Part shown: piece by piece, positions 7,314-58,432 of the stretch
Layout: the number at the start of each line of letters is the position of its first letter
Position numbering within the stretch: position 1 is the stretch's first letter
Assembly: GCA_025812035.1 (NCBI GenBank)
Contig: GCA_025812035.1_4719.1
Length of the DNA: 64,000 bases
Source of the DNA: a phage
Reading direction: 5' to 3' (one strand)
Notes under the pieces: model-generated
Seen by the model: the letters and a program-made list of their open reading frames with translations, nothing else
Told to the model about the DNA's origin: nothing
Database searches by the model: none
Program-made: the position numbers and the translations under genes

Positions 7314-9857
7314 TTACTGCTCTTCACGTTCCAACAGATACTCGGAAGCGGTAATACCATTTACCGTACGTACTGCTTTCAGACGAGTATCATCGTTCAG
7401 AATCACGGTAACAGACTGTAGACCTTTTACTTTGGTCTCGAAGGTCTTGAACACCTGATCCAGCATACGAGCAATGCTTGGGTTGGTTGCAGCTGACGCG
7501 TGAGTGTAACCGCTCTGGTTCAGATTCAGAATCTTGGCATTGGTCGGTACGCGAACAACAACATGCGGACGCATAGCGAACACGCTGTGATTGAACCAGT
7601 AAGCATCGTTGCTGTCTTCGTCAGTGACGATGTCTGGATTAACACGCATATCCTCAACAGCCGCATCAGCCAAACGACGTTCGATTTCGTCAGCGTCCAG
7701 AGAGCCATCTTTCTCCAGTTCTGCACGATACTCACTCATGGCAACCAAATGACGTTCACGATTCACCGTAGATTTTTCGTGAGCGACTTTCAGGTAGTCA
7801 TGCATGTTGTACAGTTCTGCCATAGACAGACGAATGTTCCACTGACCATCACCGTCACGGTTGCAGTAGAGACACTTCAGCATGTTGACCCAGGTATGGT
7901 AGCAATTGGAGAACTCATCTTCAATAAACTTCTGATCCATTTTAAGATCGTGAATCAGCCAGCCGGACAGTTCTCCGATATCATCAACGAAGCTAGAGAT
8001 GGTGGTTTCAGAGAAGTCCTTCGGTACGATACGTTTGATCAACTTGTTGACGTCTTTGGTCATGCTATCGTTCAGGAAATGCCAAATACGCAGAGGAATG
8101 ACATCTCGATACTGTTGCATGATCTGACGATAAGCCGCAATATCGTCGCTACGACCTTTATCAATAGACAACGCATCCAGGAATTCATGGATAGCATCCA
8201 GCTCTTTGTCGGTATAAGTTCCCAGATAGGAATTGACCGTGGCAAGGAATGCTAATGCGTCGTTTTGGTTGACGTCGGTGTTGGTCTGCTGGATGATCGC
8301 CACAGCAGCTTTGGTTTCAGCATCCTCAACGCTCGATGCTGCGATCGCATCGGTAACGGTAAACAGTTTCATTTCGCGTTGTTCGCCGACAACGATTGGT
8401 TCACGTTGAACCGGTTTGTTGAGGCTAACGCGGACAACCTCCGATTGCGCGATGCGGTCCAGTTTTATCATTTCCTGCTCTGCCATACGACGAGCGGTTG
8501 GATCTGATTCAAGTTCGATGTATTCCACTTCTTCCTCCGTGAGGGATGTAATGTCAACAATGGTTTCATGAAGAATTCCGTTTTCGTCGATACGTGCTCG
8601 ACGAGCGAAGTGCCTGAAGTCATACAACGTTGGCCAGCGACAATTAGGTGCGTAGTCTTTGGCCTTCAGACGCATCTGCATAAATTCTTCATGTTGAACA
8701 ACACGACCGTAACGCTTAGCATCTTCGGTCGCATCAATGGGATTAACGGTCTTTGTTGCCGTAGCGGAACGAACCGTACGGATGGGTTCCGGTTTAGTCT
8801 GCACAGGTTCAGGTTGAACAGGTTTCTGCTGTCCAGACTTAACATGCCATTCGGGTTCTTCGTACCGTTCAGCGAACTGTTCGGCTGCTGCAAAGATATC
8901 GTTGATACCACCGACGTCTCCTTCGGGATTCGTCGAGTAGATACGTGGTTGTGGTGCCTCGTAACGCGGCGCTGTGGTAGCAGGTGCATCATCAACGATA
9001 GGATCATCACCAACATCATACAAACGGTTGAACGCACAATCCTTCGAATCAATGTACGATGGAGCTTGTGGTTGAACAACCGTCGGTCGAGGTTGTGCGC
9101 CGTATCCTGGCATCGTTGGAGCCATACCACGCATAACCGCTGGACTCGGTTGGTATTGCGGTTGCGGATAGGTTCCATATGCAGGTTGCTGCGGTTGACC
9201 GTACCCGGTGCTGGCCATCGCATTTGCTTGTGGTCCGCGATACGTCATTCCCATCTGCATCACCTGTTGCTTCAAACCACGCGATTTTTGCGCGATTTGC
9301 GCCAGGCTCCCGTTTTTATTGAGCTGTGTATACTTATTCGCGGCTTCCGGGTTAACGCGTGATAACTCAATCGCACGATAATACTCCGGGTATTGATTAG
9401 GTTCAAAGAGCCACGTTACAAGATGATACAGCGCAACCGTGCTCACGGCAGCAGTGACGATCTGGTCGGTGGACGCATTCTGCGGCATCGGGTTGATGTA
9501 AGAGAATACGTTCCAGCAGCAATCTTCAACAAGCGATTCCATCATCATATCGCTATTGGTATAACGCGCGACGAAATCGGTTTGTATCTTATCTTGCTGT
9601 GCGAAGTCTTTCAAGACGTTAAAGATAGCCTGACGGATTTTGACGATCGTTGCTTCTTGGGTGATGAAGTTATAGTTCTGCTGATACGCCGGTTGCTGGT
9701 ATTGTGGTGGTTGATAGGTGTTATTCGGGTATGGGTTGTACGGCGGTTGCTGGTATTGTTGCTGACGTACCTGCTCCGCGGCATAATTAATCGTGCTCGC
9801 ATAAGGGTTTTCGCTATAGCCCATTTGCTGGTACATGTTGTTACTACCATTATACAT
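7314..9857 (-). CDS. hypothetical protein (847 aa) with Gln/Tyr/Pro/Asn-rich low-complexity regions
   Basis: ORF track; AAAGGAT SD; N-terminal ~70 aa (MYNGSNNMYQQMGYSENPY...QQQYQQPPYNPYPNNTYQPPQYQQPAYQQNYNF) and internal GYGQPQQPAYGTYPQPQYQPSP segment. Confidence 0.65.
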   Translation of the reverse strand: MYNGSNNMYQQMGYSENPYASTINYAAEQVRQQQYQQPPYNPYPNNTYQPPQYQQPAYQQNYNFITQEATIVKIRQAIFNVLKDFAQQDKIQTDFVARYTNSDMMMESLVEDCCWNVFSYINPMPQNASTDQIVTAAVSTVALYHLVTWLFEPNQYPEYYRAIELSRVNPEAANKYTQLNKNGSLAQIAQKSRGLKQQVMQMGMTYRGPQANAMASTGYGQPQQPAYGTYPQPQYQPSPAVMRGMAPTMPGYGAQPRPTVVQPQAPSYIDSKDCAFNRLYDVGDDPIVDDAPATTAPRYEAPQPRIYSTNPEGDVGGINDIFAAAEQFAERYEEPEWHVKSGQQKPVQPEPVQTKPEPIRTVRSATATKTVNPIDATEDAKRYGRVVQHEEFMQMRLKAKDYAPNCRWPTLYDFRHFARRARIDENGILHETIVDITSLTEEEVEYIELESDPTARRMAEQEMIKLDRIAQSEVVRVSLNKPVQREPIVVGEQREMKLFTVTDAIAASSVEDAETKAAVAIIQQTNTDVNQNDALAFLATVNSYLGTYTDKELDAIHEFLDALSIDKGRSDDIAAYRQIMQQYRDVIPLRIWHFLNDSMTKDVNKLIKRIVPKDFSETTISSFVDDIGELSGWLIHDLKMDQKFIEDEFSNCYHTWVNMLKCLYCNRDGDGQWNIRLSMAELYNMHDYLKVAHEKSTVNRERHLVAMSEYRAELEKDGSLDADEIERRLADAAVEDMRVNPDIVTDEDSNDAYWFNHSVFAMRPHVVVRVPTNAKILNLNQSGYTHASAATNPSIARMLDQVFKTFETKVKGLQSVTVILNDDTRLKAVRTVNGITASEYLLEREEQ

Positions 9858-9891: not shown

Positions 9892-11688
9892 TCAATCGAT
9901 TATGTCACGATCGTTAATTTCTACAATTTCTTCATCGAATCGACCGACGTCTTTCTTCAAGCCTGCATTTGTTGCTGCAACGTCATTTGCAATTTGTGGG
10001 GTAACGATTAACCGACCACGCTCGTCGATAGGTGCGTACATACTGAACTTCTGACGTCCGGTTGGTTCGGAGTGTGGAAGATTCAGATAGCTCGCACAGA
10101 ACGGGATGGAACCACTAACCAAACGACTCTCGTCAGCCAACGCAGCACCGCCTGCGTTTTGGCTCTGGAGAACAACATGCGTGCTCACTTTGAACAGCAT
10201 GCAATCACCCGGTGACTGAATCGATGTTGCCACTTTCTCACGCTTATCACGATTGCTCTGGATATTGAGAATCGCTTCTGTTGCAACTTGATTTCGCAAC
10301 GCCTTCTGTACATCGCGATTGGTCATCTCTTTACGGTTGTTCTGTCGTTTACCACGTTCTGTGGTTTTAAGATGGAACCCCAGTTTAAAGATGCTCTTAC
10401 GCACATCCTCCATGACATATTCCAACACCATCAATTCCTTACCGAACATCGTCGTGGTATCAACACGACTCATTTCGATAGTAACATTGTCAATCAGATA
10501 CGCCATAAATTCGTAGAAGTCATCGCAAGGAATATTTTCCTGTTTGAACTTCTTCTGCTGAATTTCGTCGACGTAAAGATCAAGGCTATCGATGTGGTGG
10601 TTTACATCACGCAACAAACGCGCATCCGCGTTGTTGTTATTAAAGATAATCAAACCGAGTAATGTACGCCAATGGTCTGGCGCATTAGCGAACTCTTCAA
10701 CCGGATAGTCTTCCGGAAAACGATCGTAATAGCGGTCGATGAGATACAAGAACGCACCGACAAGGCCAAGAACAATACGTTCCGTGCCTCCACGTCTTAC
10801 AGCAATTTGAATATCAGGATGTTTATAACGTACAGCGTTAGCGCTACGGCTTTTACCGCTCTTACTAATACTAAAGCCTTTAGGAATAACCCCCATGGTG
10901 CGATAGATTACCCATTGGTCGCGCGGAAAATCGCGTTCAGCAAGATTCCGTCCGGTTACCGCTTCGACACCCGCGAAACGTCGGAAACATTCACCTACCC
11001 CGTACTTCGCAAAGAGATAGTGACCCAATGTGGTTACACTGGTGTGGTTGATGTTGTCACCGTTCACTTTACTTTGTTTGGTAAGATGATAGATTTGCGA
11101 CCAGGGTAACGATAGATAGTGACGATAATCGACACCGGTTGGAGTATCATTACTCAGGAACTGATACGGCGTACGTTTAACTGTGATTTTGTCACGCGGA
11201 AGCATGATGAACGCCATGTCTTTCGTGTAACTGATTACAGGGTCAGCGAGTACCGCACTGAGAATAAAGTTTGCACCACGTAGACGCATTTTACCACCCT
11301 GCCCTACTGCGGGTAATAGGAGAGGGTGTCGGATAATGCAGTAGTCCTTTCCTGGTTCACGACGGTCACCTGATTCCATCGCGCCATACCAGCGGAATTC
11401 TAACATCACCATAAACACATCGGACGGCGCAAGGTCAAAGGTCAGCTTACCGCTATCCTTCCCTTTGGTTTTCTTTCCTCCGCTTAAGTAGTGAAACTGT
11501 TCGCGGGCCACACAACGACGTAGGCCATGATACACCAGATCCTTAGGTAAACTATCTTTGCTGTTCCGCCAAAGACGATCAACATAGGACTCAACATCTT
11601 GCATCTTATCGACGACGATGTTGCGCGCTATCTTCTCGTTCATCTTCGGTGCAAGCCCAGCGACAGCTTTGCAGAATCTAGGATCCAT
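9892..11688 (-). CDS. hypothetical protein (~598 aa)
   Basis: ORF track 9892..11691; ATG at 11686-11688 preceded by AAAGGAG SD; no polymerase or terminase motifs recognised. Confidence 0.6.
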   Translation of the reverse strand: MDPRFCKAVAGLAPKMNEKIARNIVVDKMQDVESYVDRLWRNSKDSLPKDLVYHGLRRCVAREQFHYLSGGKKTKGKDSGKLTFDLAPSDVFMVMLEFRWYGAMESGDRREPGKDYCIIRHPLLLPAVGQGGKMRLRGANFILSAVLADPVISYTKDMAFIMLPRDKITVKRTPYQFLSNDTPTGVDYRHYLSLPWSQIYHLTKQSKVNGDNINHTSVTTLGHYLFAKYGVGECFRRFAGVEAVTGRNLAERDFPRDQWVIYRTMGVIPKGFSISKSGKSRSANAVRYKHPDIQIAVRRGGTERIVLGLVGAFLYLIDRYYDRFPEDYPVEEFANAPDHWRTLLGLIIFNNNNADARLLRDVNHHIDSLDLYVDEIQQKKFKQENIPCDDFYEFMAYLIDNVTIEMSRVDTTTMFGKELMVLEYVMEDVRKSIFKLGFHLKTTERGKRQNNRKEMTNRDVQKALRNQVATEAILNIQSNRDKREKVATSIQSPGDCMLFKVSTHVVLQSQNAGGAALADESRLVSGSIPFCASYLNLPHSEPTGRQKFSMYAPIDERGRLIVTPQIANDVAATNAGLKKDVGRFDEEIVEINDRDIID

Positions 11689-11727
11689 CACACACTCCTT
11701 TCAGAAAGTTGCTTAAGCAGATTAAAG

Positions 11728-13437: not shown

Positions 13438-13534
13438 GACTTATGTATCACGGTGCCGGATGAATGTCCGGTGCAATGAAACCATCTGCAACGTTGTCGT
13501 CAAGAATATCATCCAACGAAGCAGCTACGGTAGT

Positions 13535-15757
13535 TCAGTTAGTCTGAACCGGCAGCTTGATGTTTTCAGTGTAGACCTTACGCAGGTTCACGACGTTAAT
13601 CAGACCCAGCAGCGGGCAGTTGTTAACGAAGCGGCAGCGCGGCTGAACCATGGTTTCTTTAGAAACCTGACCGTTACGGGTAACCTGAGCAACAGATACC
13701 AGTTCCGGTACATACAGGAACATACCGAAGGTCAGCGGATCCGGAGAACCCTGGATACCACGAGACAGGGTCACGAAGATCTTATCACGCAGCAGGACGT
13801 TCGGGTTATCTACAACCACGAAGTTGAAGCTTACACCAACGGTACGGAAATCACCATCGGTCTGCAGGAACTGCGGGATGTAGTTGTCGGTTGCTACTAC
13901 GCAACGCGGTTTCTCATCAGCGTTGGAAGACAGCAGCTGCAGAGCTGGCTGATAACCAGACTCAGAGTACATGCGGTATGCCATCTCACGAATCACGTTC
14001 ATGATCGCAGCGGACACTTCAGCACGACGTTCTGCAGTGGTGGTACCCTGAACGGATTTCGCCAGGTCCAGGTTGATTTCTTCGAACCACGGACGGATCA
14101 GGTAACGACCGAAACCTTCGATCTGGATGTCACCGAACTGACGGAAGCGAGAGGTCGCAACTGCTTTCAGTGCGTCTTTGTAGCTGAACAGTTTCTCAAC
14201 CATCAGGTTGTCGAAACGTGCGTTAGCCGCTTGGATCAGAACGTCCAGGTCAGCAGCGTTTTCTTCCCAATCAAGCGGACGAGGAATGGAGAACGGAGCC
14301 AGCAGACCGATTGCGTAACGCTCTTGCTTCATGTTGAAGTCAAGGTGCTTACCACGTTCACGACGGTTGCTGTTGTTACGACGGATACGCAGTTCGTAAC
14401 CAACCAGTTTGAAGCTCAGGTCGTCAGCCAGGTCTTTGAATTCTTGGCTCTTACGCGGCTGTTCGATGTTGTCCTGATCAACCAGGCGATACAGTTCAGC
14501 GTTAGCGCCGTTAACACGCAGACCCGCTTTCTCTACGTTGGAAGAACCGTAAACTTCGATAGCCAGCTGAGCAGCGGATTTCGCATCGATGATGTCCTGC
14601 AGCGCTTCGGCTTTCGCACCTTTAACGTCAACGGTGTTCTCATCAACGAAGATGGAGTGAGTGTCGAACGCCAGGGTCATTTTGCGGAAGTCGCCTTCCA
14701 GAGATTTCTGGAAACCGTTGGTGATCAGACCGGATACGTCGAACGGAACGTAAGAGGTTTTGCTGTGCTTAGCGGATTTGATTTCCACCAGGATTTTGGT
14801 CAGCGTGATCTGAGCATCCAGCGCGTCGGTGTTGTCGCTGTAACCGTTAGCCAGAATGCTATCGTCTTCAGCGATACCGATCATGTCGATCAGTTTATCA
14901 ACAGCCAGGTAAGACGTTTTATAAGTTACGCCTTTAATTTCGATGTCACGCGGAGCAACGATAGCTTTGTCAACGAAGTACTGCGCGTTAGCATCGTCAG
15001 CACGATAGATCGGGTGCAGGTCGGTCACGTCGTTGGACAGAACGTCGTTGTACATGAACGCGTCCAGCAGCGGACGACGTACCCAATCAGCCGGAGTACC
15101 GTCAGCGTTACGACGCAGATGGTTGAATACCAGCGGACGACGGAAAGATACGTCATAACCGATCTGGTTCGGAGCCAGAACGATGGTGTTGTACAGTTCG
15201 TTACCCATGCGGCTCAGACGAGAAGCCTTCACGTTGAACACAACGGAGTACGGCATCATGTCGCGCAGTTCTTTCTGGTCGTAGGACAGCTGAACCAGTT
15301 CTTCAGATTCGCAACCGCAGGAATCAGCAGCCATCATGACGAAGTTAGAGCTGTCAACTTCACGACCTGACGGAGTGGTGCTGATGTTCATGGAACGTGC
15401 TTGTTTAGCGTATTCCACCGGGTTACCATGAGCCAGCATGATCAGTGCTGCTGCACGAGCCTGCTGTGCGTTCATGGTGAACAGCTGTTCTTCAATACGC
15501 TGCTTCTCTTCCGGAGTGGTGGTTTCGAAGCCCAGCATAGACAGAACCGGTTCTTCTGCTTTACGGATGTCGCTGCTGAAGCTCTTAACATCCATATCGT
15601 TAACCAGTTTGTCCATGGATTTGAAATCAACCTTAGAAGCAGATTCCATAGACAGGAAGGTGTTTTCCAGACCTTTGTCTGCTGGTTTGCTACCATTAGC
15701 GGTCAGGAACTGGCGAGTGGCCGCGACCTGCTGGCTAAGAAGGGTTTTATCATTCAT
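13535..15757 (-). CDS. candidate major capsid protein (740 aa); tail sheath not excluded
   Basis: Strongest codon bias in the window (CGT/CTG/ACC/GGT-rich), implying very high expression; length matches the ~740-750 aa major capsid proteins I recall for phiKZ-like phages; AAAGGA SD; acidic N-terminal region with S-x-E motifs; no homology search run. Confidence 0.5.
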   Translation of the reverse strand: MNDKTLLSQQVAATRQFLTANGSKPADKGLENTFLSMESASKVDFKSMDKLVNDMDVKSFSSDIRKAEEPVLSMLGFETTTPEEKQRIEEQLFTMNAQQARAAALIMLAHGNPVEYAKQARSMNISTTPSGREVDSSNFVMMAADSCGCESEELVQLSYDQKELRDMMPYSVVFNVKASRLSRMGNELYNTIVLAPNQIGYDVSFRRPLVFNHLRRNADGTPADWVRRPLLDAFMYNDVLSNDVTDLHPIYRADDANAQYFVDKAIVAPRDIEIKGVTYKTSYLAVDKLIDMIGIAEDDSILANGYSDNTDALDAQITLTKILVEIKSAKHSKTSYVPFDVSGLITNGFQKSLEGDFRKMTLAFDTHSIFVDENTVDVKGAKAEALQDIIDAKSAAQLAIEVYGSSNVEKAGLRVNGANAELYRLVDQDNIEQPRKSQEFKDLADDLSFKLVGYELRIRRNNSNRRERGKHLDFNMKQERYAIGLLAPFSIPRPLDWEENAADLDVLIQAANARFDNLMVEKLFSYKDALKAVATSRFRQFGDIQIEGFGRYLIRPWFEEINLDLAKSVQGTTTAERRAEVSAAIMNVIREMAYRMYSESGYQPALQLLSSNADEKPRCVVATDNYIPQFLQTDGDFRTVGVSFNFVVVDNPNVLLRDKIFVTLSRGIQGSPDPLTFGMFLYVPELVSVAQVTRNGQVSKETMVQPRCRFVNNCPLLGLINVVNLRKVYTENIKLPVQTN

Positions 15758-15906: not shown

Positions 15907-16527
15907 TCACAAACGACGCAGGCGATAATGGATGGAACGATTGGTGCAATATGAACGGAACAGCGGCAATTGCGCAACTTCCGCAAGACTCATATTAATT
16001 CGCAGGTGTTCAATAACGGCGCTGTAGTTATCAGCAATACGATCGCTCAATAACTCTTCTGCCAATAAAGGAAGACAATCGACAACAATCGCGATCATAT
16101 CCTCATTAACATAACGCACCCGAACACTCAACGGACGTTTGTCTGGGCTGTAAGTTGGATCCGCCAAACGACGTTCAATATCACGCGGATAGCTCGTCAG
16201 TAAATGGTAGTAACCATTATCATAACGATTGATGTACTCACACAGCACATCAACATTCTTTTCTGGCGGCAAACCTGTTTCGTCATAGTGATACGCAAAC
16301 ATACCACCAAGCAGGTTGTTAAGATGAACTGCAGGGTTCGCTTGTTCGTGTTCTTTCGTGATGAAGAAAGGCACGTTCTGAGCTGCGAAATAAAAACCTA
16401 CATCATTGGGCGATAGTATGCCGAAAAGACTTTTAGGATCCAACAGCACCTGTAAGTCATCACGCGCATTTCGAATGATTGCGTGTTCTACCCAATTCGG
16501 AACGACGAGATATCGGAGTTCCTTCAT
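15907..16527 (-). CDS. hypothetical protein (206 aa)
   Basis: ORF track; AGAGGT SD 8 nt upstream of ATG; divergent from the helicase gene. Confidence 0.55.
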   Translation of the reverse strand: MKELRYLVVPNWVEHAIIRNARDDLQVLLDPKSLFGILSPNDVGFYFAAQNVPFFITKEHEQANPAVHLNNLLGGMFAYHYDETGLPPEKNVDVLCEYINRYDNGYYHLLTSYPRDIERRLADPTYSPDKRPLSVRVRYVNEDMIAIVVDCLPLLAEELLSDRIADNYSAVIEHLRINMSLAEVAQLPLFRSYCTNRSIHYRLRRL

Positions 16528-16566
16528 TATGATTACCTCTTTGTAAGTATCGAAAGGATTGAGTCG

Positions 16567-18177
16567 ATGGACCCAAAACAGATAGCCATTAAGATTATTA
16601 CGTTACTGTTTCGTAACGCACAATTGAACCATCCAGATCCCAGTACGATCGACCATGTTAAATCCGTCTTAGATAAAGTCGAACCCCCGAAAAACCATCT
16701 CGCTACGGACATAGATAGAGAGGTTTTCAACAACCTGATGAATACCATTCATTGGATGTTGGAACAACCATTATCGGAACCTTTCGATAAACAACAGTTG
16801 TTACAAAGGATACGTTTGGATTGTCTTGAGCAAAGCAATCTTTACGAGATTCTTGCCGACGGACTGTACGATATCGAAGACGATGCTCATATCAGTAAGG
16901 TCTGTTCGCTTTATTACAACGAATTGCGTAACTTGGTTACCCGTCGTCGTGTTTTCGAAACCTTTAAAAACACATACATGGATATCAGTAATGGGCGTCT
17001 TGGGGATAAAGAATTTTTCGACGCGATGGCGAATTTGAAACTCTCGCTAGACAGTATCGAAATGGATACCGAAAATCCCGAAGAGATGTCGTGTATGATT
17101 GACGGTTTTATCGCCGACAGTGAAGACGATATCGAGAAAGTCGAACGTATGTTCATCAAAGCGATGGAACGTAACAGTCCTGAAGGTGGATTTGTAACCG
17201 GCTGGCAAGGTTTTAATAAAATGCTAGGGTCGGTCGGTGTTTTACGTCGCGGTACCTTAGGACTGATTGGTGCGATGCAGCACAGGAACAAGTCGGGCGT
17301 GCTGTTAAAACTGTTCACACATCTGGCGTTGTACAATAAACCTCATTTCTTTTTTCCGGAGCGAGCAAAGAAAGCATTACTGATTCATTTGTCAACAGAA
17401 AACGAAGTAGAAGAAAACACGCTTCAGATATACAAAAACATGCGAGAACAGGAAACAGGCGAATATGTCGATATTCGTAAGATTGACCCTCGCGAGGCAT
17501 CACGTTATGTGTTGAAGGTTTTCAATGACGCGGGTTTCTCTGTGTGTATGCGTCGTGTTGATGGGATGAGCTATAAACAACTTGCGAACCTCATCGACCA
17601 TTTTGAACGCATGGGCTATGAAGTCATGGCGTTGTTCATCGACTATCTGAAAATGTTCTCATCGGAAGGGCTGGATAGAAACGGACCAACCGGCGCATGG
17701 CTACAAGAACTCTTCAACAAAGTCCGTAACCTCTGCAGCGTTAAACGTATTTTAGGTATGACCGTACACCAGCTATCATCCGACGCGAAGATGCGTGCGC
17801 GTGACGGTAACGATGAAGAGTTTGTTGACCAGGTCGCAGGCTTAAGTTACTGGGATGGCTGTAAAGGGATTGACCGTGAGATCGATCTTGAAGTGATTGT
17901 TGATATCGTTAAGGAACCGGGTAAACGTCAAAGCTGGCAAGTCTTTGCATTAGGGAAAGACCGTCAACCGGATAACGGTTCAACGAAACCTGAGGATAAA
18001 CATTTCACGATGCCGTTCCAAACCATCGGGATGCTTCCTGATGATTACGGTAAGAAAGCAGTATACTGCCGCAAGGTTGGCGGACAACCTGTCTCTGAGG
18101 GAGGCAAAGGTCCGTGGAACAAGTTCGATGAAAACGCAGCGCCGAGCAATGAATTACAATTTGATTTAGAATTTTAA
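16567..18177 (+). CDS. DnaB-like (SF4) replicative DNA helicase
   Basis: ORF track 16483..18177; start moved to ATG 16567 (AAGGA SD) to avoid overlap with the divergent gene. In DnaB order and spacing: GFVTGWQGFNKMLGSVGVLRRGTLGLIGAMQHRNKSG (H1/Walker A region), ALFIDYLKMF (Walker B, cf. DnaB VDYLQLM), MTVHQLSSDAKMRAR (H3, cf. SQLNR..E.R). Confidence 0.6.
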   Translation: MDPKQIAIKIITLLFRNAQLNHPDPSTIDHVKSVLDKVEPPKNHLATDIDREVFNNLMNTIHWMLEQPLSEPFDKQQLLQRIRLDCLEQSNLYEILADGLYDIEDDAHISKVCSLYYNELRNLVTRRRVFETFKNTYMDISNGRLGDKEFFDAMANLKLSLDSIEMDTENPEEMSCMIDGFIADSEDDIEKVERMFIKAMERNSPEGGFVTGWQGFNKMLGSVGVLRRGTLGLIGAMQHRNKSGVLLKLFTHLALYNKPHFFFPERAKKALLIHLSTENEVEENTLQIYKNMREQETGEYVDIRKIDPREASRYVLKVFNDAGFSVCMRRVDGMSYKQLANLIDHFERMGYEVMALFIDYLKMFSSEGLDRNGPTGAWLQELFNKVRNLCSVKRILGMTVHQLSSDAKMRARDGNDEEFVDQVAGLSYWDGCKGIDREIDLEVIVDIVKEPGKRQSWQVFALGKDRQPDNGSTKPEDKHFTMPFQTIGMLPDDYGKKAVYCRKVGGQPVSEGGKGPWNKFDENAAPSNELQFDLEF

Positions 18178-19683: not shown

Positions 19684-20586
19684 TTACTTAGTCTTCGAGT
19701 TACAAGGACTGACCTGTTGTTGTACTCGTTGAATTGTGTCGTAGTACGGGTTAGATTGGTTGAACATGTTGTTGTGTGGATGATAGCCGTATGGCGCATT
19801 TTGCCTTGTTGATGAGAAACCTTGTTGAGAAGGACGATTTGAATTAACCGCGAGTACGTAGTAAACCAAATTTTGACGGTCGAACGTTCCTTCGTTTTTG
19901 AAGGTGTCGGCGTAGGTGCTTATCGCTGGAGCGAGTCTATCACCATCGGCGGTAATAATTGTACCGTCTGGGTAAACTTCACGAACGACGCACCATGTTC
20001 CGATAAGAACGTCTTTGGGTGGCGTATTGCCGTATCCGGTTGTAACGGTAAGGTAAGTATCGAACCCTTCAGAACAACAAGGATGACGATAGATAGGTCC
20101 TGTCATTTCCGTTCTATCGGTATCATCGCATTTCTCTATTGAGAGCGATGATGTGTCGGTTTTGAAATTGTCAAATTCTTTCTTTAAGTCGATTACAGGT
20201 TCTTTCGTATAGTACTTCTTGATTGCTTTGACGTAAAGATCAGGAACGGTTGTCAGCATTCCGTTATACCTGATTCTCAGGTTTTCGAGTAATCCAAAGA
20301 TACTCGCGCATGCTTGTTCGCGAGGTTTTGTAAGATAAGAGATCCCCCCAGGAACGCTGGGATCTTTGAGAAAGAAGATTGCGTTATTGTCGTTGTGTGG
20401 TGCATTGAAGAAAACGATTGATTCGATATATACGGAGCATAGGCTGTCGTTGGCGTCGTCAGATAACACCCAGATGCACTCATCGGTCGTCTTGTTTAAA
20501 AGTTCTGTTTTGTCCACCAAACGTTGTTTCATTGCGAGGAAATGTGCCTGTTGTTCAGCGGATAATTCACGATAAATAGTGGTCAT
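19684..20586 (-). CDS. hypothetical protein, paralog A of a tandem pair (~300 aa)
   Basis: ORF track 19684..20664; ATG 20584-20586 with AAGGAG SD; shares IYRHPCCSEGFDTYLTVTTGY...REVYPDGTI core with the next gene. Confidence 0.6.
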   Translation of the reverse strand: MTTIYRELSAEQQAHFLAMKQRLVDKTELLNKTTDECIWVLSDDANDSLCSVYIESIVFFNAPHNDNNAIFFLKDPSVPGGISYLTKPREQACASIFGLLENLRIRYNGMLTTVPDLYVKAIKKYYTKEPVIDLKKEFDNFKTDTSSLSIEKCDDTDRTEMTGPIYRHPCCSEGFDTYLTVTTGYGNTPPKDVLIGTWCVVREVYPDGTIITADGDRLAPAISTYADTFKNEGTFDRQNLVYYVLAVNSNRPSQQGFSSTRQNAPYGYHPHNNMFNQSNPYYDTIQRVQQQVSPCNSKTK

Positions 20587-20671
20587 ACTCGGCTCCTTGA
20601 TTACGATAAGGATGATTGCGGTTTTGTGATGCTGGTAGGGCCCTAAACAAAGGAGCCCTACCAATATTGGG

Positions 20672-21451
20672 TTACTCAGGATCGGCGTAGAAATGATGGG
20701 GATAGCCGGAGTACGATCCCGCGTTACCGGCTATGGATTTTTTCTGGGAATCGACGACGAGCGCATAGAACTGTCGGGAATTTGTTAGCGTTGAGAAATA
20801 AGAGGAAAGGACTTTTTCATTCAACGCATCGCAAGGTAGACAGGTGCGACCGCAAAACGTCACAATACGACCGTCAGGATAGATCTCACGAATCATTCTC
20901 CATTCGCCGATATCAACCGGCGATGGCGCTGCTACAGCACCCGTTATTGTTAAGTAACGATCGTACGTGGTGTGGCATTCTGGATGAATGTAGATCGGTT
21001 GGGTATCAGTGCTTTCGTTTTCTACCTGATCTTTGCTTACGTATACCTCAAGATAAATCGTTGGTAGTCCGGTTAGAACGCCGGTATCGCGACGTTTTTT
21101 GGTAATCCGGGGACGGATATTATCGAGCACACCTTCCAGTTTTTCTGCGATTTCGTCAGCCGGTAATATATACCCGTATGTTGGTTCTAGATCATCATCG
21201 TGACTGAATAAGATACGACAGTCGTTGTTATTTTCTGGTGCTTCAGGCGGAAAGATGATGGCTTGAACCGTATGACGTTCTGCGATATAAAATCCTTCAG
21301 GTCCCTCAGTTTTGGTAAGTGTAAAGGACCAGGATGAATGATCTTCAAGTGATGTGCCTTCCAGGAAAAAGTTCGTCCGGATTGGTGCGTCCCATTTTGT
21401 GATCATATTGGCGTGACCGATAGCGCCTAACTTTTGATAAATATCTGTCAT
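20672..21451 (-). CDS. hypothetical protein, paralog B of a tandem pair (~260 aa)
   Basis: ORF track 20672..21547; ATG 21449-21451 with GAGGA SD; core IYIHPECHTTYDRYLTITG...REIYPDGRI matches the upstream gene. Confidence 0.6.
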   Translation of the reverse strand: MTDIYQKLGAIGHANMITKWDAPIRTNFFLEGTSLEDHSSWSFTLTKTEGPEGFYIAERHTVQAIIFPPEAPENNNDCRILFSHDDDLEPTYGYILPADEIAEKLEGVLDNIRPRITKKRRDTGVLTGLPTIYLEVYVSKDQVENESTDTQPIYIHPECHTTYDRYLTITGAVAAPSPVDIGEWRMIREIYPDGRIVTFCGRTCLPCDALNEKVLSSYFSTLTNSRQFYALVVDSQKKSIAGNAGSYSGYPHHFYADPE

Positions 21452-21506
21452 GATTGTATCCTCGGTTGTTAAGAGAAATTTACAGCGATAACAGTAACCG
21501 TTGTTA

Positions 21507-21565
21507 TCACCTAGGTAATATAGTCGTGAAATAAACTGGATTAACAAGAATAAGACAGCATAGAA
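21507..21565 (-). promoter_or_regulatory. conserved intergenic element, copy 2 (candidate promoter)
   Basis: ~85% identical over ~59 nt to the copy at 59630-59690 (plus strand TCACCTAGGTAATATAGTCGTGAAATAAACTGGATTAACAAGAATAAGACAGCATAGAA); on minus reads …TTGTTAATCCAGTTTATTTCACGACTATATTACCTAGGTGA, upstream of the gene starting at 21451. Confidence 0.4.
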
Positions 21566-52338: not shown

Positions 52339-54090
52339 ATGAGCGAACAAGAACGAAAACCTAAGAAGAAACTGCTCGGTATTCAATGTCGACACATCAG
52401 TTATAACGAAGCGAACGATGGCAGTAAGAACGATCTCATGATTGCAAAAGAGATCATGTTCTTTGATGATAATACGCAGGCAACGAACCTTCGATTCTTC
52501 GAGAATTACAAACGTCCATTTTGGGTGACGGTAGAGAGTAAACGTAAGAACAAATATAAAAAGGAAAGCGAGAAGCTCTCGCATGTACGTCGCTATGATG
52601 TCCGTCAAAGTGAACTGGTCGATAAAATCAGTTCGGTGCTTTATAAAAGACGTGCTGATGATAACACCCGCTTACAACAGCTCGCACGGAGTCCATACCT
52701 CTATGGAACGGACGTTAGCGCTAGCTGTTATTTAAAAACCCAATACAATACAAAATGGCCGGAATACGCCGATAAATTACCTGCCACCATCGCATGTTTC
52801 GATATCGAAACCGACGTTGTTCATGGGCACGGTAAGATCGTTTGTATGTCTATTACAATGGGCTACAATGCGATACTTTGCTATACCAAGGACTTCGTTG
52901 GTCATATTCCGAATGCGATCGAGAAAACCCACGAGAAGATTCGATATTACCTGGCCGAACGTCTGAACACCAAAGAGGATCCTCACGCGTTCGAAAAATA
53001 TCATTACGATGTTCGAATCGTAGAAAGCCCAGCACAAGCGGTCATCCAATGCATGCAGAAGGTTCACGAATGGCAGCCGGATTATCTCCTTGGCTGGAAT
53101 ATCGCGTTCGATATTCCACGTATGCTCCAGGCGCTGAACGAGGAAGGGTATCGTCCCGAGGATGTTTTCTCCGATCCTCGCGTACCCCCTAAGTATCGCA
53201 TTGCTCGCTGGGTACCACCGAAGACCGACAAGGTATCTGCTTCAGGTCGTAAAACCAACCTTACCCTTGAGCAGACCTGGCCGATGTTTTATACGATGGC
53301 TACATACCAGGTTATGGATGCGATGTGTGGTTATAAGTTCGTTCGTTTAGGAAGACCGGATGAAGGACGTTATTCACTCGATGCGGTGTTAGAGCGTAAT
53401 AAATGTCATACGAAACTAAAAGCGATTCCTGGTACAGAAGGGTTCACGGAGCTCGCCTGGCACGAAGAGATGCAAACGAACCATCAAATCGACTACGGCG
53501 TATATAACCTTTGGGATAACCAAGGTATTGAGGCATTGGACCAGAAAACAAAAGACTATTCGATGACCATCCCTATTCGTTTAGCGGCGTCGGATTTGAA
53601 AGATTTCAGTTCCAACCCTAAACGTATCTGTGATAAACTTTTCTTCGTTTATCTTAACCGTGGGGAAGTCATGGGATGCACCGCCGACGACATGACCCAG
53701 GAAGAAGATAAATGGGTTATCTCACGAGCAGGACATATCGTCACATTACCATGCGATCTCATGGCAGACAACGGCATACATCTCTTCTGGGATATGCCGA
53801 ACTTGAGAAGTTATATCCGTCTATTCGTTGCAGACCTTGACATAAGCAGTTCATACCCGAATGGGCAGATCCTGCTCAATCTATCCAGGGCGTGTGTTTT
53901 TCGTGAGCTCTCACGTATTGAGGGCGTCTCTGACTATCAATTCAGGAAGCTAGGTATCAACTTTATTACCGGAGGTAAAACGAACGCGGTAGACTTCTGT
54001 AGAATCGTTTATAAAGCACCATCGATGTTCGAACTCTTAGAACATTTCGATGCGACGCGTCCGAAAGAGGAAGCGCGAACCATCGAATGA
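52339..54090 (+). CDS. family B DNA polymerase, N-terminal part (3'-5' exonuclease domain plus palm motif A); motifs B and C not encoded here
   Basis: ORF track; Exo I ACFDIETD, Exo II LGWNIAFDIPRM, Exo III YGVYNLWD, motif A-like DLDISSSYPNG (cf. DxxSLYPS); ORF ends ~70 aa after motif A with no YGDTDS-type motif; followed by a hairpin and T-rich tract. Confidence 0.6.
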   Translation: MSEQERKPKKKLLGIQCRHISYNEANDGSKNDLMIAKEIMFFDDNTQATNLRFFENYKRPFWVTVESKRKNKYKKESEKLSHVRRYDVRQSELVDKISSVLYKRRADDNTRLQQLARSPYLYGTDVSASCYLKTQYNTKWPEYADKLPATIACFDIETDVVHGHGKIVCMSITMGYNAILCYTKDFVGHIPNAIEKTHEKIRYYLAERLNTKEDPHAFEKYHYDVRIVESPAQAVIQCMQKVHEWQPDYLLGWNIAFDIPRMLQALNEEGYRPEDVFSDPRVPPKYRIARWVPPKTDKVSASGRKTNLTLEQTWPMFYTMATYQVMDAMCGYKFVRLGRPDEGRYSLDAVLERNKCHTKLKAIPGTEGFTELAWHEEMQTNHQIDYGVYNLWDNQGIEALDQKTKDYSMTIPIRLAASDLKDFSSNPKRICDKLFFVYLNRGEVMGCTADDMTQEEDKWVISRAGHIVTLPCDLMADNGIHLFWDMPNLRSYIRLFVADLDISSSYPNGQILLNLSRACVFRELSRIEGVSDYQFRKLGINFITGGKTNAVDFCRIVYKAPSMFELLEHFDATRPKEEARTIE

Positions 54091-54138
54091 TTAAAGTATG
54101 TTGATCCTCGTTTAACAAAAAAGAAAACGCATGCGAAG

Positions 54139-54170
54139 CCCCTCCCCCTGGCGGAAGCCGGAGGGAGGGG
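54139..54170. terminator. hairpin terminator after the polymerase gene
   Basis: CCCCTCCC…CGG-AAG-CCG…GGGAGGGG imperfect nested stem, then TGGAGGTTTTATGTGTTTTTAATT on plus; convergent with the first gene of the small-paralog array. Confidence 0.6.
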
Positions 54171-54188
54171 TGGAGGTTTTATGTGTTT

Positions 54189-54638
54189 TTAATTATTATT
54201 GGTGGGGTTATCGTCCGGTTTATATTCAATGCCGTAGGCGACGTAACGGTCTGTTGTATGGACGACAAGCGAGATAGGGAAATCATAATGCATAGTTTTG
54301 TCTCGAACGAGCTGAGTAAAGAGATCCATATAACGTATTAAGTCTTCACTGGTGTAATCAGAAGGGAAGAAGACATCGATGGTTATTGAATCTTCATAGA
54401 GGCGTACGACCAACTTATCCAGAAGGTCGGCATATTGGTTAGCCGGGGTGACGTCCATCTGACAGATGCCACGATCTCCTTCGTCTCGCGATACCCACAT
54501 CGTGGTATCCTGTAATGAGGTTTCAAGGATCTCGAAAATACATTTTGCTGTAAGTCTTAGTTTATTTGTTACGTCATGGTTAGGTGAATAATGGTCACGG
54601 ATGTTTTTCACTGCGTCTTTGATAGAGAAAGTCATCAT
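54189..54638 (-). CDS. small acidic protein, member 1 of tandem paralog array (149 aa)
   Basis: ORF track; C-terminal signature HYDFPISLVVHTTDRYVAYGIEYKPDDNP shared with neighbours. Confidence 0.6.
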   Translation of the reverse strand: MMTFSIKDAVKNIRDHYSPNHDVTNKLRLTAKCIFEILETSLQDTTMWVSRDEGDRGICQMDVTPANQYADLLDKLVVRLYEDSITIDVFFPSDYTSEDLIRYMDLFTQLVRDKTMHYDFPISLVVHTTDRYVAYGIEYKPDDNPTNNN

Positions 54639-54648
54639 TGATGCTCCT

Positions 54649-55158
54649 TCAAATGAAATTAATACGTGCGGCTGTCGAAACGAGTTCGCTTGTAAAGCAA
54701 TGCTTACCGTCGGGATTTACCGTGTGGGTAAGTTTACAAACCTTAGCGGCAGGGTTAGCGCCGATGACAAGGACGGTCGTCATATCGAACAGTTCCACAC
54801 GTTGAAGAAATGCCGTATCGGCTACCTTCTGTAAACCGGTTGCTTCAAAATCGATGTGGTCGTTAAGAGGCACCAATTGGATTTCAATACGTTCTTTGAA
54901 AAGTTTAAACGTTACTGAAAACCGATGAGGTTCGGCATTAAGCCATAAAGGTCCGCGTTGGAAGTGCTGATATGCTTCATTCGCGGTGTTCTCGAAAACC
55001 CAGCAGTCGTGGACAAGAGAAGCCTCTTGTAACGATGATTCCAGGTAGTCAAATACCTTGTTTATCGTTTTCTCAAGCATAGGTGCTAGTGAACCAGGGT
55101 ATCCAGCAAATGCTGCTTCGGCAATCGATTTTATTGATACGATGTTGTTCTGACTCAT
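54649..55158 (-). CDS. small protein, member 2 of tandem paralog array (~169 aa)
   Basis: ORF track 54649..55185; ATG 55156-55158 with AAGGAA SD; N-terminal helix LEKTINKVFDYLESSL and FDMTTVLVIG…VNPDG weak family signature. Confidence 0.5.
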   Translation of the reverse strand: MSQNNIVSIKSIAEAAFAGYPGSLAPMLEKTINKVFDYLESSLQEASLVHDCWVFENTANEAYQHFQRGPLWLNAEPHRFSVTFKLFKERIEIQLVPLNDHIDFEATGLQKVADTAFLQRVELFDMTTVLVIGANPAAKVCKLTHTVNPDGKHCFTSELVSTAARINFI

Positions 55159-55162
55159 TTCT

Positions 55163-55615
55163 TTATTCCTTGTTGGCTTCTTCAATGTACTTGGTGTCGT
55201 AAGACAAATGCTGAATTAATTTTCTAGGCTCGATGAAAATACGACACGTGATAAACACATCAGGGTTGTATTGTTCCACGCAACGTCCGAAGGCTTGTTT
55301 TGCGGCGTGACGCATCAACACTAATTCCCGATCGTTCATCTCATCATCAAATTCGATATGTATCGTGATTTTATCGGGAAATAAATAGATAGAGTAATCG
55401 CTACCAATACCGTCGTCGTCAAAGCGATAATCGTTGTGGTAATGGTGAAGTTTACCTTCGTGTACCGTCTGGTACCACCCGACGATACTATCAAGACCCA
55501 TACCCAGGCGTCCGAATGCCTGATTAATAATATCCTCGACGACGGATGCGGGGGTGGGACCATTGAACAATCTATCCAGACGTTTTTTCATCGATTTGTC
55601 TGTTTTCACATTCAT
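55163..55615 (-). CDS. small protein, member 3 of tandem paralog array (~150 aa)
   Basis: ORF track 55163..55666; ATG 55613-55615 with AGGAA SD avoids the hairpin at ~55646-55681; C-terminal FITCRIFIEP…. Confidence 0.5.
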   Translation of the reverse strand: MNVKTDKSMKKRLDRLFNGPTPASVVEDIINQAFGRLGMGLDSIVGWYQTVHEGKLHHYHNDYRFDDDGIGSDYSIYLFPDKITIHIEFDDEMNDRELVLMRHAAKQAFGRCVEQYNPDVFITCRIFIEPRKLIQHLSYDTKYIEEANKE

Positions 55616-55645
55616 CGATTCTGTTCCTGTTATAGTCAGTATAAA

Positions 55646-55681
55646 CCCTCCTTCCCTAGCCATCAAGGCCGGGGAAGGGGG
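55646..55681 (-). terminator. imperfect hairpin inside the small-paralog array
   Basis: CCCTCCTTCCC…GGGGAAGGGGG with mismatches; lies between members 3 and 4. Confidence 0.4.
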
Positions 55682-55693
55682 TATGTGCGTTAT

Positions 55694-56101
55694 TTATGCT
55701 TCGTTGTCAACTAAAGGTGCTGTATGTTTCTTACCGTCGATGTGCCAAATGAGACACGCTGGATAGAGGTTAACATCTAGAGAGCAGGGGAGGCCATATT
55801 TCTCTTCCAGTTCGTAAAGACGTTCAGCGAGCTGCTTCCGTCCATCATCATCGTTTTGCAATGCATGATGGCCGAATCGTTGCTGGTCGTTCTTTACATA
55901 CGCCTCGAAAAGTATATGTTGTTGAAAAACGATGATTCTTACACCTTCAAGTATGTCGGTGTCGAGCATGCGAGAAAAACTCATACATGCCTCTGATGCC
56001 GAAGACGAGTTTTCCTCTTTAACAATATCAATCATCGCGGTGATACGTGGCTGATCGATGTTGTCGTTAACCGCTTTAACGATGGAATCTACAATACTCA
56101 T
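55694..56101 (-). CDS. small protein, member 4 of tandem paralog array (135 aa)
   Basis: ORF track; N-terminal helix SIVDSIVKAVNDNI; weak C-terminal signature LPCSLDVNLYP. Confidence 0.5.
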   Translation of the reverse strand: MSIVDSIVKAVNDNIDQPRITAMIDIVKEENSSSASEACMSFSRMLDTDILEGVRIIVFQQHILFEAYVKNDQQRFGHHALQNDDDGRKQLAERLYELEEKYGLPCSLDVNLYPACLIWHIDGKKHTAPLVDNEA

Positions 56102-56138
56102 TTTTTATCCTTAATGTTACCGGTTTAGAAATATTATT

Positions 56139-56903
56139 TTATTTACTGTTATCCTTATCGACAGTTGTTACCCATGATGGGAAAGCCGGATGGAAACAGA
56201 GCGTGAACGTAACCTTCGCATCGTATTTAAGCGCGTGGTTCACTAACCGGGTATCGAACGTTTTCCTTAGCCCGTCATCATCATTATCGATGATAGTCAT
56301 ATCCCTTAATATCCCAAGCACGTTAACGCCATCGGGTGTCTGGGTTACGACGACTCGTCGTAACGGCCCATGTGTATAGTCACGTACGTATCCTTTCTTC
56401 GGGTCCGATACTCTGTTTAACGCATCGCGATTTTCGATGAGTTCATCAGCAATACGATAGATGTGTTCCCTTGCTTTATCGTGATCGTATTCTGCTAATA
56501 GTTCCTTTGTATCGAACGATATCGCGTTACTATCATTCGATTCAGAAGGGAAATAAAGAACTAAACGAACAGGGTATTCGTATTGATCCGTTCTCGTTTC
56601 GAAAACACCGGCTAAACATGGTTTATATGCCTTTGCGTCGACGTTGTCTAAACACGGATGCAATAATGCGTGAATAACGACACCATCGTCAGTTAAACCG
56701 AATTCCAGAAATTGTGTTTCATCGGTATCTGTTACCGTTTTCTGAAGATACGCTTTACCGTTAACGATATCGGTATCCCATATATCGTCGTTTAATGATT
56801 CTTCAAACTTATCGAATATAAGGTTTACGGTATCGATGAGTCCATCGATACGCCACTGCTGATTGCTCTCAATTAATTGCTGAACCTTATCTTTGATAGA
56901 CAT
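56139..56903 (-). CDS. member 5 of tandem paralog array, apparently duplicated-domain form (254 aa)
   Basis: ORF track; two signature-like segments (EYPVRLVLYFPSESNDSNAISFD and KVTFTLCFHP). Confidence 0.55.
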   Translation of the reverse strand: MSIKDKVQQLIESNQQWRIDGLIDTVNLIFDKFEESLNDDIWDTDIVNGKAYLQKTVTDTDETQFLEFGLTDDGVVIHALLHPCLDNVDAKAYKPCLAGVFETRTDQYEYPVRLVLYFPSESNDSNAISFDTKELLAEYDHDKAREHIYRIADELIENRDALNRVSDPKKGYVRDYTHGPLRRVVVTQTPDGVNVLGILRDMTIIDNDDDGLRKTFDTRLVNHALKYDAKVTFTLCFHPAFPSWVTTVDKDNSK

Positions 56904-56905
56904 GA

Positions 56906-57364
56906 TTACTCCTTAGTTCCTTCTTCGTCAGGTGTATACGCCAATGTGAAGAATTCATAACCATCAACAAACTTGAATGTTACTGTAATAGGGAAATCGC
57001 ACGGCATGACGGATTTCATAAATGCATCATTAGCAACCTCAGATAACCGACGTATGACATCTCCCCTGCTGGCGTTGAATGGTAGTTTTATGTCGATAAG
57101 GATGCGGTGCTTGTAAACATAGAAAACAACGGTACTGTCAAGATAAATACCAGAGAGCTGCGTTGTTGGGATGCGTTCCACAATGGAAAAATACGTCCCA
57201 TCAGTATCGCTATTTCCCACCGACCATTTATCGGATTTGCGTAGATTTTCTTTGAGGGATTCGACACTTCGAGTGATGACCTCAACGATAGGCGTGACGT
57301 AAGCGTCTTTATGCGTGTCGAAAAGTTCGTTAACAGTAGACTTGAATGAATATTCTGTTGTCAT
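56906..57364 (-). CDS. small acidic protein, member 6 of tandem paralog array (152 aa)
   Basis: ORF track; signature CDFPITVTFKFVDGYEFFTLAYTPDEEG. Confidence 0.6.
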   Translation of the reverse strand: MTTEYSFKSTVNELFDTHKDAYVTPIVEVITRSVESLKENLRKSDKWSVGNSDTDGTYFSIVERIPTTQLSGIYLDSTVVFYVYKHRILIDIKLPFNASRGDVIRRLSEVANDAFMKSVMPCDFPITVTFKFVDGYEFFTLAYTPDEEGTKE

Positions 57365-57825
57365 TATTCTACCTCTTTCTTCATCTTCATCGGAACAGAG
57401 AGTGTTGTTACCTCTGTTCCATTATCCGGCTCATATTCCAATGTAACGAGATCGTAACCATCCGATAATTCATAATCGATCGCTAGGGGGAACGAGATAC
57501 CGTGCGACTTTATGCATTTACCAAATGTCTCATTGGCCGTATACATTAGAAGTTGCTTTGCGGCAAGCCCGTTTACGCTGAAAGGTAATCGTGCTGTCGC
57601 AGCGATACGATTATTGTAAACTCTGATATCGGTGATATCTACAATCGTAGCATTGCTATGTTGTAATGTTGGAACGGATAGGCTGTAGAAGTAAGGTTTA
57701 GATCCGGAATCGGGTTCATTAAATAATTCCCAACATCCGTCCTCCTGCAATCTTACCTCGAGTATTTCAAAGCTTTTAATTATCGATTCTACCAGCTGCT
57801 CACCGTAAGAATCCCATGTCGTCAT
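57364..57825 (-). CDS. small acidic protein, member 7 of tandem paralog array (~153 aa)
   Basis: ORF track 57364..57879; ATG 57823-57825 with GAAGGTG SD; signature ISFPLAIDYELSDGYDLVTLEYEPDNG. Confidence 0.6.
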   Translation of the reverse strand: MTTWDSYGEQLVESIIKSFEILEVRLQEDGCWELFNEPDSGSKPYFYSLSVPTLQHSNATIVDITDIRVYNNRIAATARLPFSVNGLAAKQLLMYTANETFGKCIKSHGISFPLAIDYELSDGYDLVTLEYEPDNGTEVTTLSVPMKMKKEVE

Positions 57826-57894
57826 TTTAGCACCTTCGATACCTTTTAACCGACACGTGCCCCACTTAACAAGGGACACGAAGTCGTTGATTAA

Positions 57895-58389
57895 TTACTC
57901 TTCTGTGTTTTCATTGTCAGGATCGTAGTGGAATTCGAACAGCCCTGAACCGTCATGCCCATTGATTGTTAGTATAACGGGCATATCGAATCCTCGGACG
58001 CGCGAATGAAAACACTGTGCTAATTTTAGTTTGGCGTATGCCGCTATTTCATTGATGGCAATACACGACTCACCTGTTATACTCAGTATAACGTCGATAC
58101 TAACAATGTTGTTGTGCAACGCAAAACGCCAACGATCGATATGATTATTATCTTTAGCGGTTGTCTCGTTTACGAGATAGACTTTATCGTCAGCCGACAA
58201 AGCGGGGCTCCAGCAACGTTCGTTTATTAAATTCGCCTGGAGTTTTAGTATCGTCTGATCAATAATATCCCAACACGTAACCAGCGTGGCGTCAGACACT
58301 GAATTGAGAAGGGCGAGCACTTTATCCTTTATTTTAAGTGCTTCCGCAGGACGCCCGCAAATACCATGCATTTCAACTTTCTTATTCAT
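57895..58389 (-). CDS. small acidic protein, member 8 of tandem paralog array (~164 aa)
   Basis: ORF track 57895..58395 (GTG); ATG 58387-58389 with AAAAGAGG SD; signature FDMPVILTINGHDGSGLFEFHYDPDNENTEE. Confidence 0.6.
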   Translation of the reverse strand: MNKKVEMHGICGRPAEALKIKDKVLALLNSVSDATLVTCWDIIDQTILKLQANLINERCWSPALSADDKVYLVNETTAKDNNHIDRWRFALHNNIVSIDVILSITGESCIAINEIAAYAKLKLAQCFHSRVRGFDMPVILTINGHDGSGLFEFHYDPDNENTEE

Positions 58390-58432
58390 ATTCACCTCTT
58401 TTTTAATCTAAATGTTAGTTGGGATAGGGCGA

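Follow-up and report, generated by a model that had tools for sequence, protein, structure and literature searches.

Where is the rest of the DNA polymerase that is encoded, apparently only in its first half, by a gene in a 64,000-nucleotide (nt) stretch of phage DNA? The stretch (contig GCA_025812035.1_4719.1 of assembly GCA_025812035.1; hereafter the window) carries at positions 52339-54090 an open reading frame (ORF) that has the exonuclease motifs of a family B DNA polymerase (PolB) and a motif A, and then ends. The data presented here indicate that this gene is very probably DNAP-N, whose product is one of two chains that make up the replicative PolB of the Chimalliviridae, the nucleus-forming jumbo phages. 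They support the central proposal of a preliminary description of the locus, made from the sequence alone, that a PolB gene is split after motif A and that the remainder of the palm comes from another gene. The split-polymerase arrangement as such is already described, and is a known hallmark of the chimalliviruses.

Translation and indexing place all four motifs, Exo I, II and III followed by motif A, in canonical PolB order within the 583 amino acids (aa) of DNAP-N, as the preliminary description had read them. A family alignment of 40 DNAP-N sequences with 34-66% identity to the query (alignment A1) was used to assess conservation, and D155, E157, N254, D258, Y389, D393, D499, D501, Y506 and P507 were each found to be invariant (40/40). 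Invariance of these predicted catalytic residues lies far above chance expectation. The pattern D.D....YP is likewise kept in 99/99 DNAP-N representatives that extend to motif A. The chain stops 74 residues past G509, in agreement with the early end, some 70 residues after motif A, reported before. A six-frame regular-expression scan for motif B (K...NS.YG) and motif C (DTDS) found neither, whether in the DNAP-N ORF or among the other credible ORFs of the 64-kb stretch.

The family profile built from A1 matches RB69 gp43 with an E-value of 1.4e-6, in colinear blocks comprising Exo II, Exo III and motif A; a profile comparison with PolB, suggested in the preliminary description, thus comes out in favour of homology. 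In the motif A block the family consensus 'aDlDvsstYPntevvlNiskett' is paired with 'sfDLTSLYPSIIRQVNISPET' of RB69 (RB69 residues 404-431), and because this block aligns in the profile search, D501 is taken as the equivalent of RB69 D411. The resemblance continues past the motif, where the family consensus NISKETT meets NISPETI in RB69. The putative assignment of motif A rests on colinearity, invariance and pattern. An AlphaFold model of DNAP-N alone has a predicted local distance difference test score (pLDDT) of 83.6 and a predicted TM-score of 0.78, and is very confident over residues ~10-450. Its pLDDT falls from above 90 to 40-67 over the tail that holds motif A (residues ~460-583, window 53716-54087), which fits a segment that may fold only against a partner chain. 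Foldseek searches with the model retrieved RB69/T4 gp43, Pol epsilon, E. coli Pol II and archaeal PolB (best E-value 1.6e-12), and the alignments with PolB chains extend over 445-505 columns, more than the exonuclease domain alone. Given this alignment length and the invariant motif A, the protein does not group with stand-alone DnaQ-like 3'-5' exonucleases, and the exonuclease-only reading that the preliminary description had offered as its alternative is not supported. Nor is it a single-chain PolB of the PF03104 plus PF00136 type, as this one polypeptide has motif A but neither motifs B and C nor the thumb.

Family membership is clear over the whole length of the protein. DNAP-N matches PHROG 3011 'DNA polymerase' over residues 8-576 of 583 (E-value 3.6e-178), and is homologous end to end with phiKZ gp82, SPN3US gp44 and Goslar gp068, with the Exo I-III residues and motif A in one chain and motifs B and C absent, as in chimallivirus DNAP-N. 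Using tblastn, homologs were found in 291 phage records, all of them phiKZ-like jumbo phages, of which 287 cover at least 80% of the query. A large protein collection holds 208 DNAP-N clusters, with a median length of 570 aa among the 99 representatives that extend as far as motif A; a representative search of 1.84 billion proteins gave 609 clusters at E<=1e-30, the best 150 of these 609 spanning 450-894 aa. Across both protein searches, motif A was joined with motifs B/C in 0/232 family members. DTDS occurs in 0/120 DNAP-N representatives and a motif A-like string in 0/112 representatives of the proposed partner, DNAP-C. The 894-aa member (P0234), considered as a possible fused ancestor, was rejected: its additional residues form an acidic, helical tail that matches nothing in Pfam and lacks polymerase motifs. 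Among the sequences retrieved, neither half is ever complete alone.

An ORF that ends mid-way through what most organisms keep as one gene could be a truncated gene, either a pseudogene or the result of faulty assembly or a frameshift in sequencing, with a C-terminus that formerly adjoined it, and the still shorter 499-aa annotation of gp068 in the GenBank record of phage Goslar points the same way. We give this explanation practically no credence, and regard it as already refuted by the present data. Because a length of ~580 aa is conserved across the family, DNAP-N is neither a truncation nor a frameshift; the same length recurs in the 291 phage records and in hundreds of metagenomic clusters, and the identical 583-aa protein is found on three independent metagenomic contigs. 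The short Goslar coding sequence (CDS) is explained by an unannotated group I intron, the spliced product being 583 aa. Nothing resembling DNAP-C was seen anywhere in the window. The frameshift into a downstream polymerase C-terminus, against which the preliminary description had warned, has no + strand ORF into which it could lead: DNAP-N has - strand neighbours on either side, the 3' one convergent, and directly 3' of the gene, between it and this convergent gene, lies a GC-rich hairpin (54138-54171). Folding bears out the downstream terminator hairpin noticed earlier (-37.7 kcal/mol, z-score -4.98). The hairpin is not listed by a simple terminator scan, which missed it because the T-run starts more than 2 nt past the stem, and it is likely a two-way transcription terminator.

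The missing motifs are found in a second family, PF20286 'Divergent Family B DNA polymerase' (divDNApol), to which DNAP-C belongs. It is matched by Goslar gp244 (717 aa, E-value 2.4e-204) and SPN3US gp18 (759 aa, E-value 4.6e-284), and phiKZ gp50 is the counterpart. In an alignment of 39 DNAP-C sequences (A2), motif B KLDNNSLSG (K152, N156, G160) and motif C S404-D405-T406-D407-S408 are invariant, and no invariant acidic residue stands ahead of motif B. The A2 profile matches the fingers/motif B region of Pol delta (E-value 5.5e-5) and RB69 residues 706-755. In the phage collection, DNAP-N and DNAP-C are present in equal numbers in each genus: Pseudomonas 81, Erwinia 62, Vibrio 23, Serratia 21, Aeromonas 20, Klebsiella 16, Ralstonia 13 and Escherichia 4. 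The presence of motifs B and C in a PF20286 partner that occurs in the same phage genera supports the proposal that the palm is completed by the product of another gene. In Goslar the partner gene gp244 lies at 174314-176467, ~95 kb from gp068, and adjoins an SH3DP gene and the chimallin gene. The preliminary description had pointed to an ORF with motifs B and C as the thing to look for; the search drew a blank within the window and succeeded in relatives, where the partner is known (Goslar gp244).

Two ORFs of the window were considered as the missing half and rejected. The gene at 9892-11691 (-) has the label 'polymerase' from PHROG 2943, and is a homolog of phiKZ gp123 (PDB chain 7ogp_E, E-value 2.6e-40), which we take to be a subunit of the non-virion RNA polymerase; with PHROGs giving just 'polymerase', it could be mistaken for the missing half of the DNA polymerase. 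The 636-aa ORF at 13460-15370 (+), which contains 'FSDTDH', matches no family and is not a gene but a long shadow ORF on the strand opposite the major head gene (13535-15757, -).

We propose the following division of labour. DNAP-N would give the PolB N-terminal domain and the complete 3'-5' proofreading exonuclease (Exo I-III), together with the first palm segment bearing the motif A aspartate D501, and its 73 residues past motif A would dock onto DNAP-C. DNAP-C, encoded far away, would add the fingers with motif B, what remains of the palm with motif C (SDTDS), the thumb and a KxY-like motif. The pair would associate 1:1 and non-covalently. Since the two halves associate and motif A is in DNAP-N while motif C is in DNAP-C, the active site would be composite, with the motif A Asp supplied by DNAP-N and the motif C Asp residues (D405/D407) by DNAP-C, and we infer that D501 sits in the active site beside these motif C residues.

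The gene pair has been named a 'split subunit DNA polymerase' (PMC5694885, PMC5105663), and was first recognised in phage OBP in 2012. For phiKZ, a recent preprint describes DNAP-N and DNAP-C as a stable, B-family-like 1:1 complex resolved by cryo-EM at 2.1 Å, and a third protein, the processivity subunit Rhc, that raises the activity of the polymerase (Basu et al., bioRxiv 2026, PMC13648687). Neither DNAP-N nor DNAP-C retrieved a phiKZ polymerase structure when searched directly against PDB sequences, and the published complex was therefore not available as a template.

A stable two-subunit complex, as the preprint describes it, also argues against the idea that the halves are joined into a single chain by a split intein or by trans-splicing. 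Such joining has precedent in the split-intein and intron/endonuclease-fractured PolB genes of other phages, for example MIJ3 (PMC6892783) and the 'fractured genes' of PMC2677866, and DNAP-N has a faint match to an intein, 6zgq. This match is non-significant (E-value 0.44) and falls within the exonuclease domain (aa 386-465) rather than at the C-terminus; no Pfam intein domain was found at E<=1, and a scan of the whole window gave no Rfam match at gathering score. We therefore see neither an intein nor a self-splicing intron at the break, the remnants envisaged in the preliminary description did not materialise, and a joined chain is very improbable.

Several observations weigh against the split-polymerase explanation. 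The Pfam match of DNAP-N to DNA_pol_B_exo1 (PF03104) is sub-threshold (16.3 bits, gathering score 23 bits), although homology to PolB is backed by profile and fold; the motif A block by itself scores 1.8 bits against RB69; and DNAP-C was not found in the 64-kb window by tblastn with Goslar gp244 (best E-value 4.2). With regard to the last point, we infer from Goslar (94% nucleotide identity) and from Goslar-like metagenomic contigs of ~235 kb that this exact genome has a DNAP-C; no sample links the exact DNAP-N to a DNAP-C, as contigs with the identical protein are at most 22.6 kb long and the DNAP-C contigs come from other samples. Finally, Iyer et al. 2021 modelled the PF20286 protein with a whole RRM palm, and the exonuclease as stand-alone (PMC7824862). 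If that view were right, motif A of DNAP-N would be non-catalytic.

The same work is one basis for a different account of the protein, in which DNAP-N is a proofreading accessory only, the active site lies wholly in DNAP-C with its complete divergent palm, and DLDISSSYPN is a structural relic. The near-absence of score from the motif A block in the RB69 alignment and the low AlphaFold confidence near motif A would agree with this. Against it, D499, D501, Y506 and P507 are invariant at only ~35% identity, the D.D....YP pattern persists in every representative reaching motif A, and the similarity to RB69 runs on into NISKETT/NISPETI. Ahead of motif B, DNAP-C offers no invariant acidic residue as a stand-in for the motif A Asp, and homing introns have repeatedly settled at these codons, as is typical of functionally constrained sites. 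We consider the account of Iyer et al. 2021 less likely because motif A is invariant and DNAP-C has no substitute Asp, and an accessory role for DNAP-N alone is unlikely.

The split replicase can be compared with several known systems. Closest is that of the sister phage Goslar, where gp068 (HOV27_gp068, 'DNA polymerase') and gp244 represent the same gene and its partner, with the same flanking gene order for gp068. The Goslar gene differs in having an intron with gp069, in a CDS that ends at 499 aa, and in other synonymous codons near the site. The 638-aa gp82 of phiKZ shares 39% identity over 95% of the query and divides the labour in the same way with its partner gp50; it is distant, and structure and biochemistry have been determined for phiKZ and not for a Goslar-like phage. 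SPN3US gp44 is a DNAP-N homolog with 29% identity at 96% coverage, and its partner gp18 is encoded far from it, as in Goslar, although the gene orientation differs and the gap is ~27 kb rather than ~95 kb.

A PolB replicase in two polypeptides is also described for the T4-related Aeromonas phages 25 and 44RR, where gp43 is split into 43A and 43B, which co-purify and are active together (Petrov et al. 2010, as reported via PMC2988022). There, 43A and 43B are recent derivatives of a normal T4-type gp43, and their cistrons are adjacent, with nothing between them but a seg endonuclease gene or a short spacer that is not translated. The chimallivirus halves, in contrast, have diverged strongly and are encoded tens of kilobases from each other, and every family member seen has the split. 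With the single-chain enzymes RB69/T4 gp43, Pol delta and Pol II, DNAP-N shares the N-terminal/exonuclease fold, the order Exo I-II-III-motif A and a predicted two-metal chemistry, but it ends after the first palm segment and is without motifs B/C and the thumb.

The window and Goslar also differ at the codons of motif A. The window comes from a close relative of Escherichia phage vB_EcoM_Goslar (Chimalliviridae), which megablast matched with 94.4% identity over nt 1-1493 of the gene; the window aligns with the Goslar locus (L001) at 7662-9496 and resumes at 11278. Reading of the junction shows that the Goslar allele contains a 1762-nt group I intron (L001 9498-11259) between codons D499 and L500, two codons ahead of the catalytic Asp and 84 codons before the gene end, and so not at the split. 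The core of this intron matches Rfam RF00028 at 44.7 bits (E-value 1.3e-9), under the gathering score of 50, and the intron encodes the NUMOD1/HNH_3 endonuclease gp069. After splicing, the Goslar gene is an ORF of 1752 nt whose 583-aa product differs from the window protein at 4 residues; the 499-aa CDS in GenBank is an artefact, because the intron is unannotated. In the window, where no Rfam intron was found at gathering score, the equivalent site is empty.

Around this empty site the two alleles differ in a cluster of synonymous codons. At its densest there are 15 differences in 30 nt, against a background of 5.6% (binomial P ~1e-11, uncorrected for the scanning of ~1700 positions), and the codon set of the window is common to four other intron-less Goslar-like alleles (L007, L008, L009, L014). 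Motif A of DNAP-N is targeted by introns repeatedly. PhiPA3 gp085 ends in '...HVADLD', and the group I intron that comes next lacks an endonuclease gene (L006 4294-4599; 71.7 bits, E-value 6.6e-18); 18/120 metagenomic representatives (among P0042-P0118) break off inside motif A, at no fewer than three positions (...VAD, ...VADLD, ...ADLDV..). Tentatively, the window allele may be endonuclease-resistant or never invaded, Goslar-like coliphages being polymorphic for a mobile group I intron whose HNH endonuclease targets the motif A codons, and the recoding may reflect an ongoing conflict between homing and resistance in the phage nucleus; we consider this possible but rather doubtful. The intron endonuclease gp210 of PhiPA3 interferes with phiKZ, and such interference would parallel the homing conflict proposed here for Goslar-like phages. 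Alternatively, the synonymous cluster is a mere co-conversion tract that arrived with the intron.

The wider window is in keeping with a chimallivirus genome. The genes neighbouring DNAP-N are collinear with Goslar gp029-gp078, and in addition to the homolog of phiKZ gp123 the window holds the phiKZ-type major head gene (13535-15757, -), an RNA polymerase beta subunit gene and, at 16483-18177 (+), the divergent, DnaB-like replicative helicase that phages of this group typically carry. At 19684-21547 (-), two ORFs of 326 and 291 aa, neither with a Pfam match, fill ~1.9 kb where Goslar has a ~300-bp gap with the small gp047, a difference that is an insertion or deletion between the two phages. 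Just 3' of DNAP-N, seven or eight small genes of 135-254 aa stand in tandem at 54189-58395 (-), possibly to 59065. These form a very divergent paralog family with 14-24% identity, sharing among other features 'SIK' at the N-terminus and 'Y.PD' at the C-terminus; none has a Pfam or PHROG match, and window 54180-55140 gave no blastn alignment with Goslar. The features of the DNAP-N locus are collected in Table 1.

Table 1. Positions in the window of the DNAP-N gene, its motifs and associated features.
Feature	Position	Strand	Remarks
DNAP-N CDS	52339..54090	+	ATG start, 583 aa, 1752 nt; orthologs Goslar gp068 (spliced), phiKZ gp82, SPN3US gp44
Exo I CFDIETDV, aa 153-160	52795..52818	+	D155 and E157 are predicted 3'-5' exonuclease metal ligands; pLDDT >90
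Exo II GWNIAFDIP, aa 252-260	53092..53118	+	N254 and D258 invariant; pairs with RB69 'WNVESFDIP' (profile search)
Exo III YGVYNLWDN, aa 386-394	53494..53520	+	Y389 and D393 invariant; pairs with RB69 'YISYNIIDV'
Synonymous cluster relative to Goslar	53797..53893	+	21 codon differences, all synonymous, codons 487-518, around the intron site
Motif A FVADLDISSSYPNGQ, aa 496-510	53824..53868	+	D501 equivalent to RB69 D411; D499, Y506 and P507 also invariant
Empty equivalent of the Goslar intron insertion site	53835..53836	+	between codons D499 and L500
C-terminal 73 residues past motif A	53869..54087	+	N514, E523 and N549 invariant; first palm part; pLDDT 40-77 when modelled alone
GC-rich hairpin	54138..54171 (within 54125-54190)		-37.7 kcal/mol, z-score -4.98 relative to shuffles

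In short, a split replicase was correctly recognisable from raw sequence. The gene in the window should be annotated as 'DNA polymerase, N-terminal (exonuclease/motif A) subunit', and the Goslar reference CDS of 499 aa needs correction to the spliced 583-aa product. The only modestly new point is the intron/endonuclease polymorphism at a catalytic motif, through which conflict over a homing endonuclease between jumbo phages of E. coli could be tested on a small scale.

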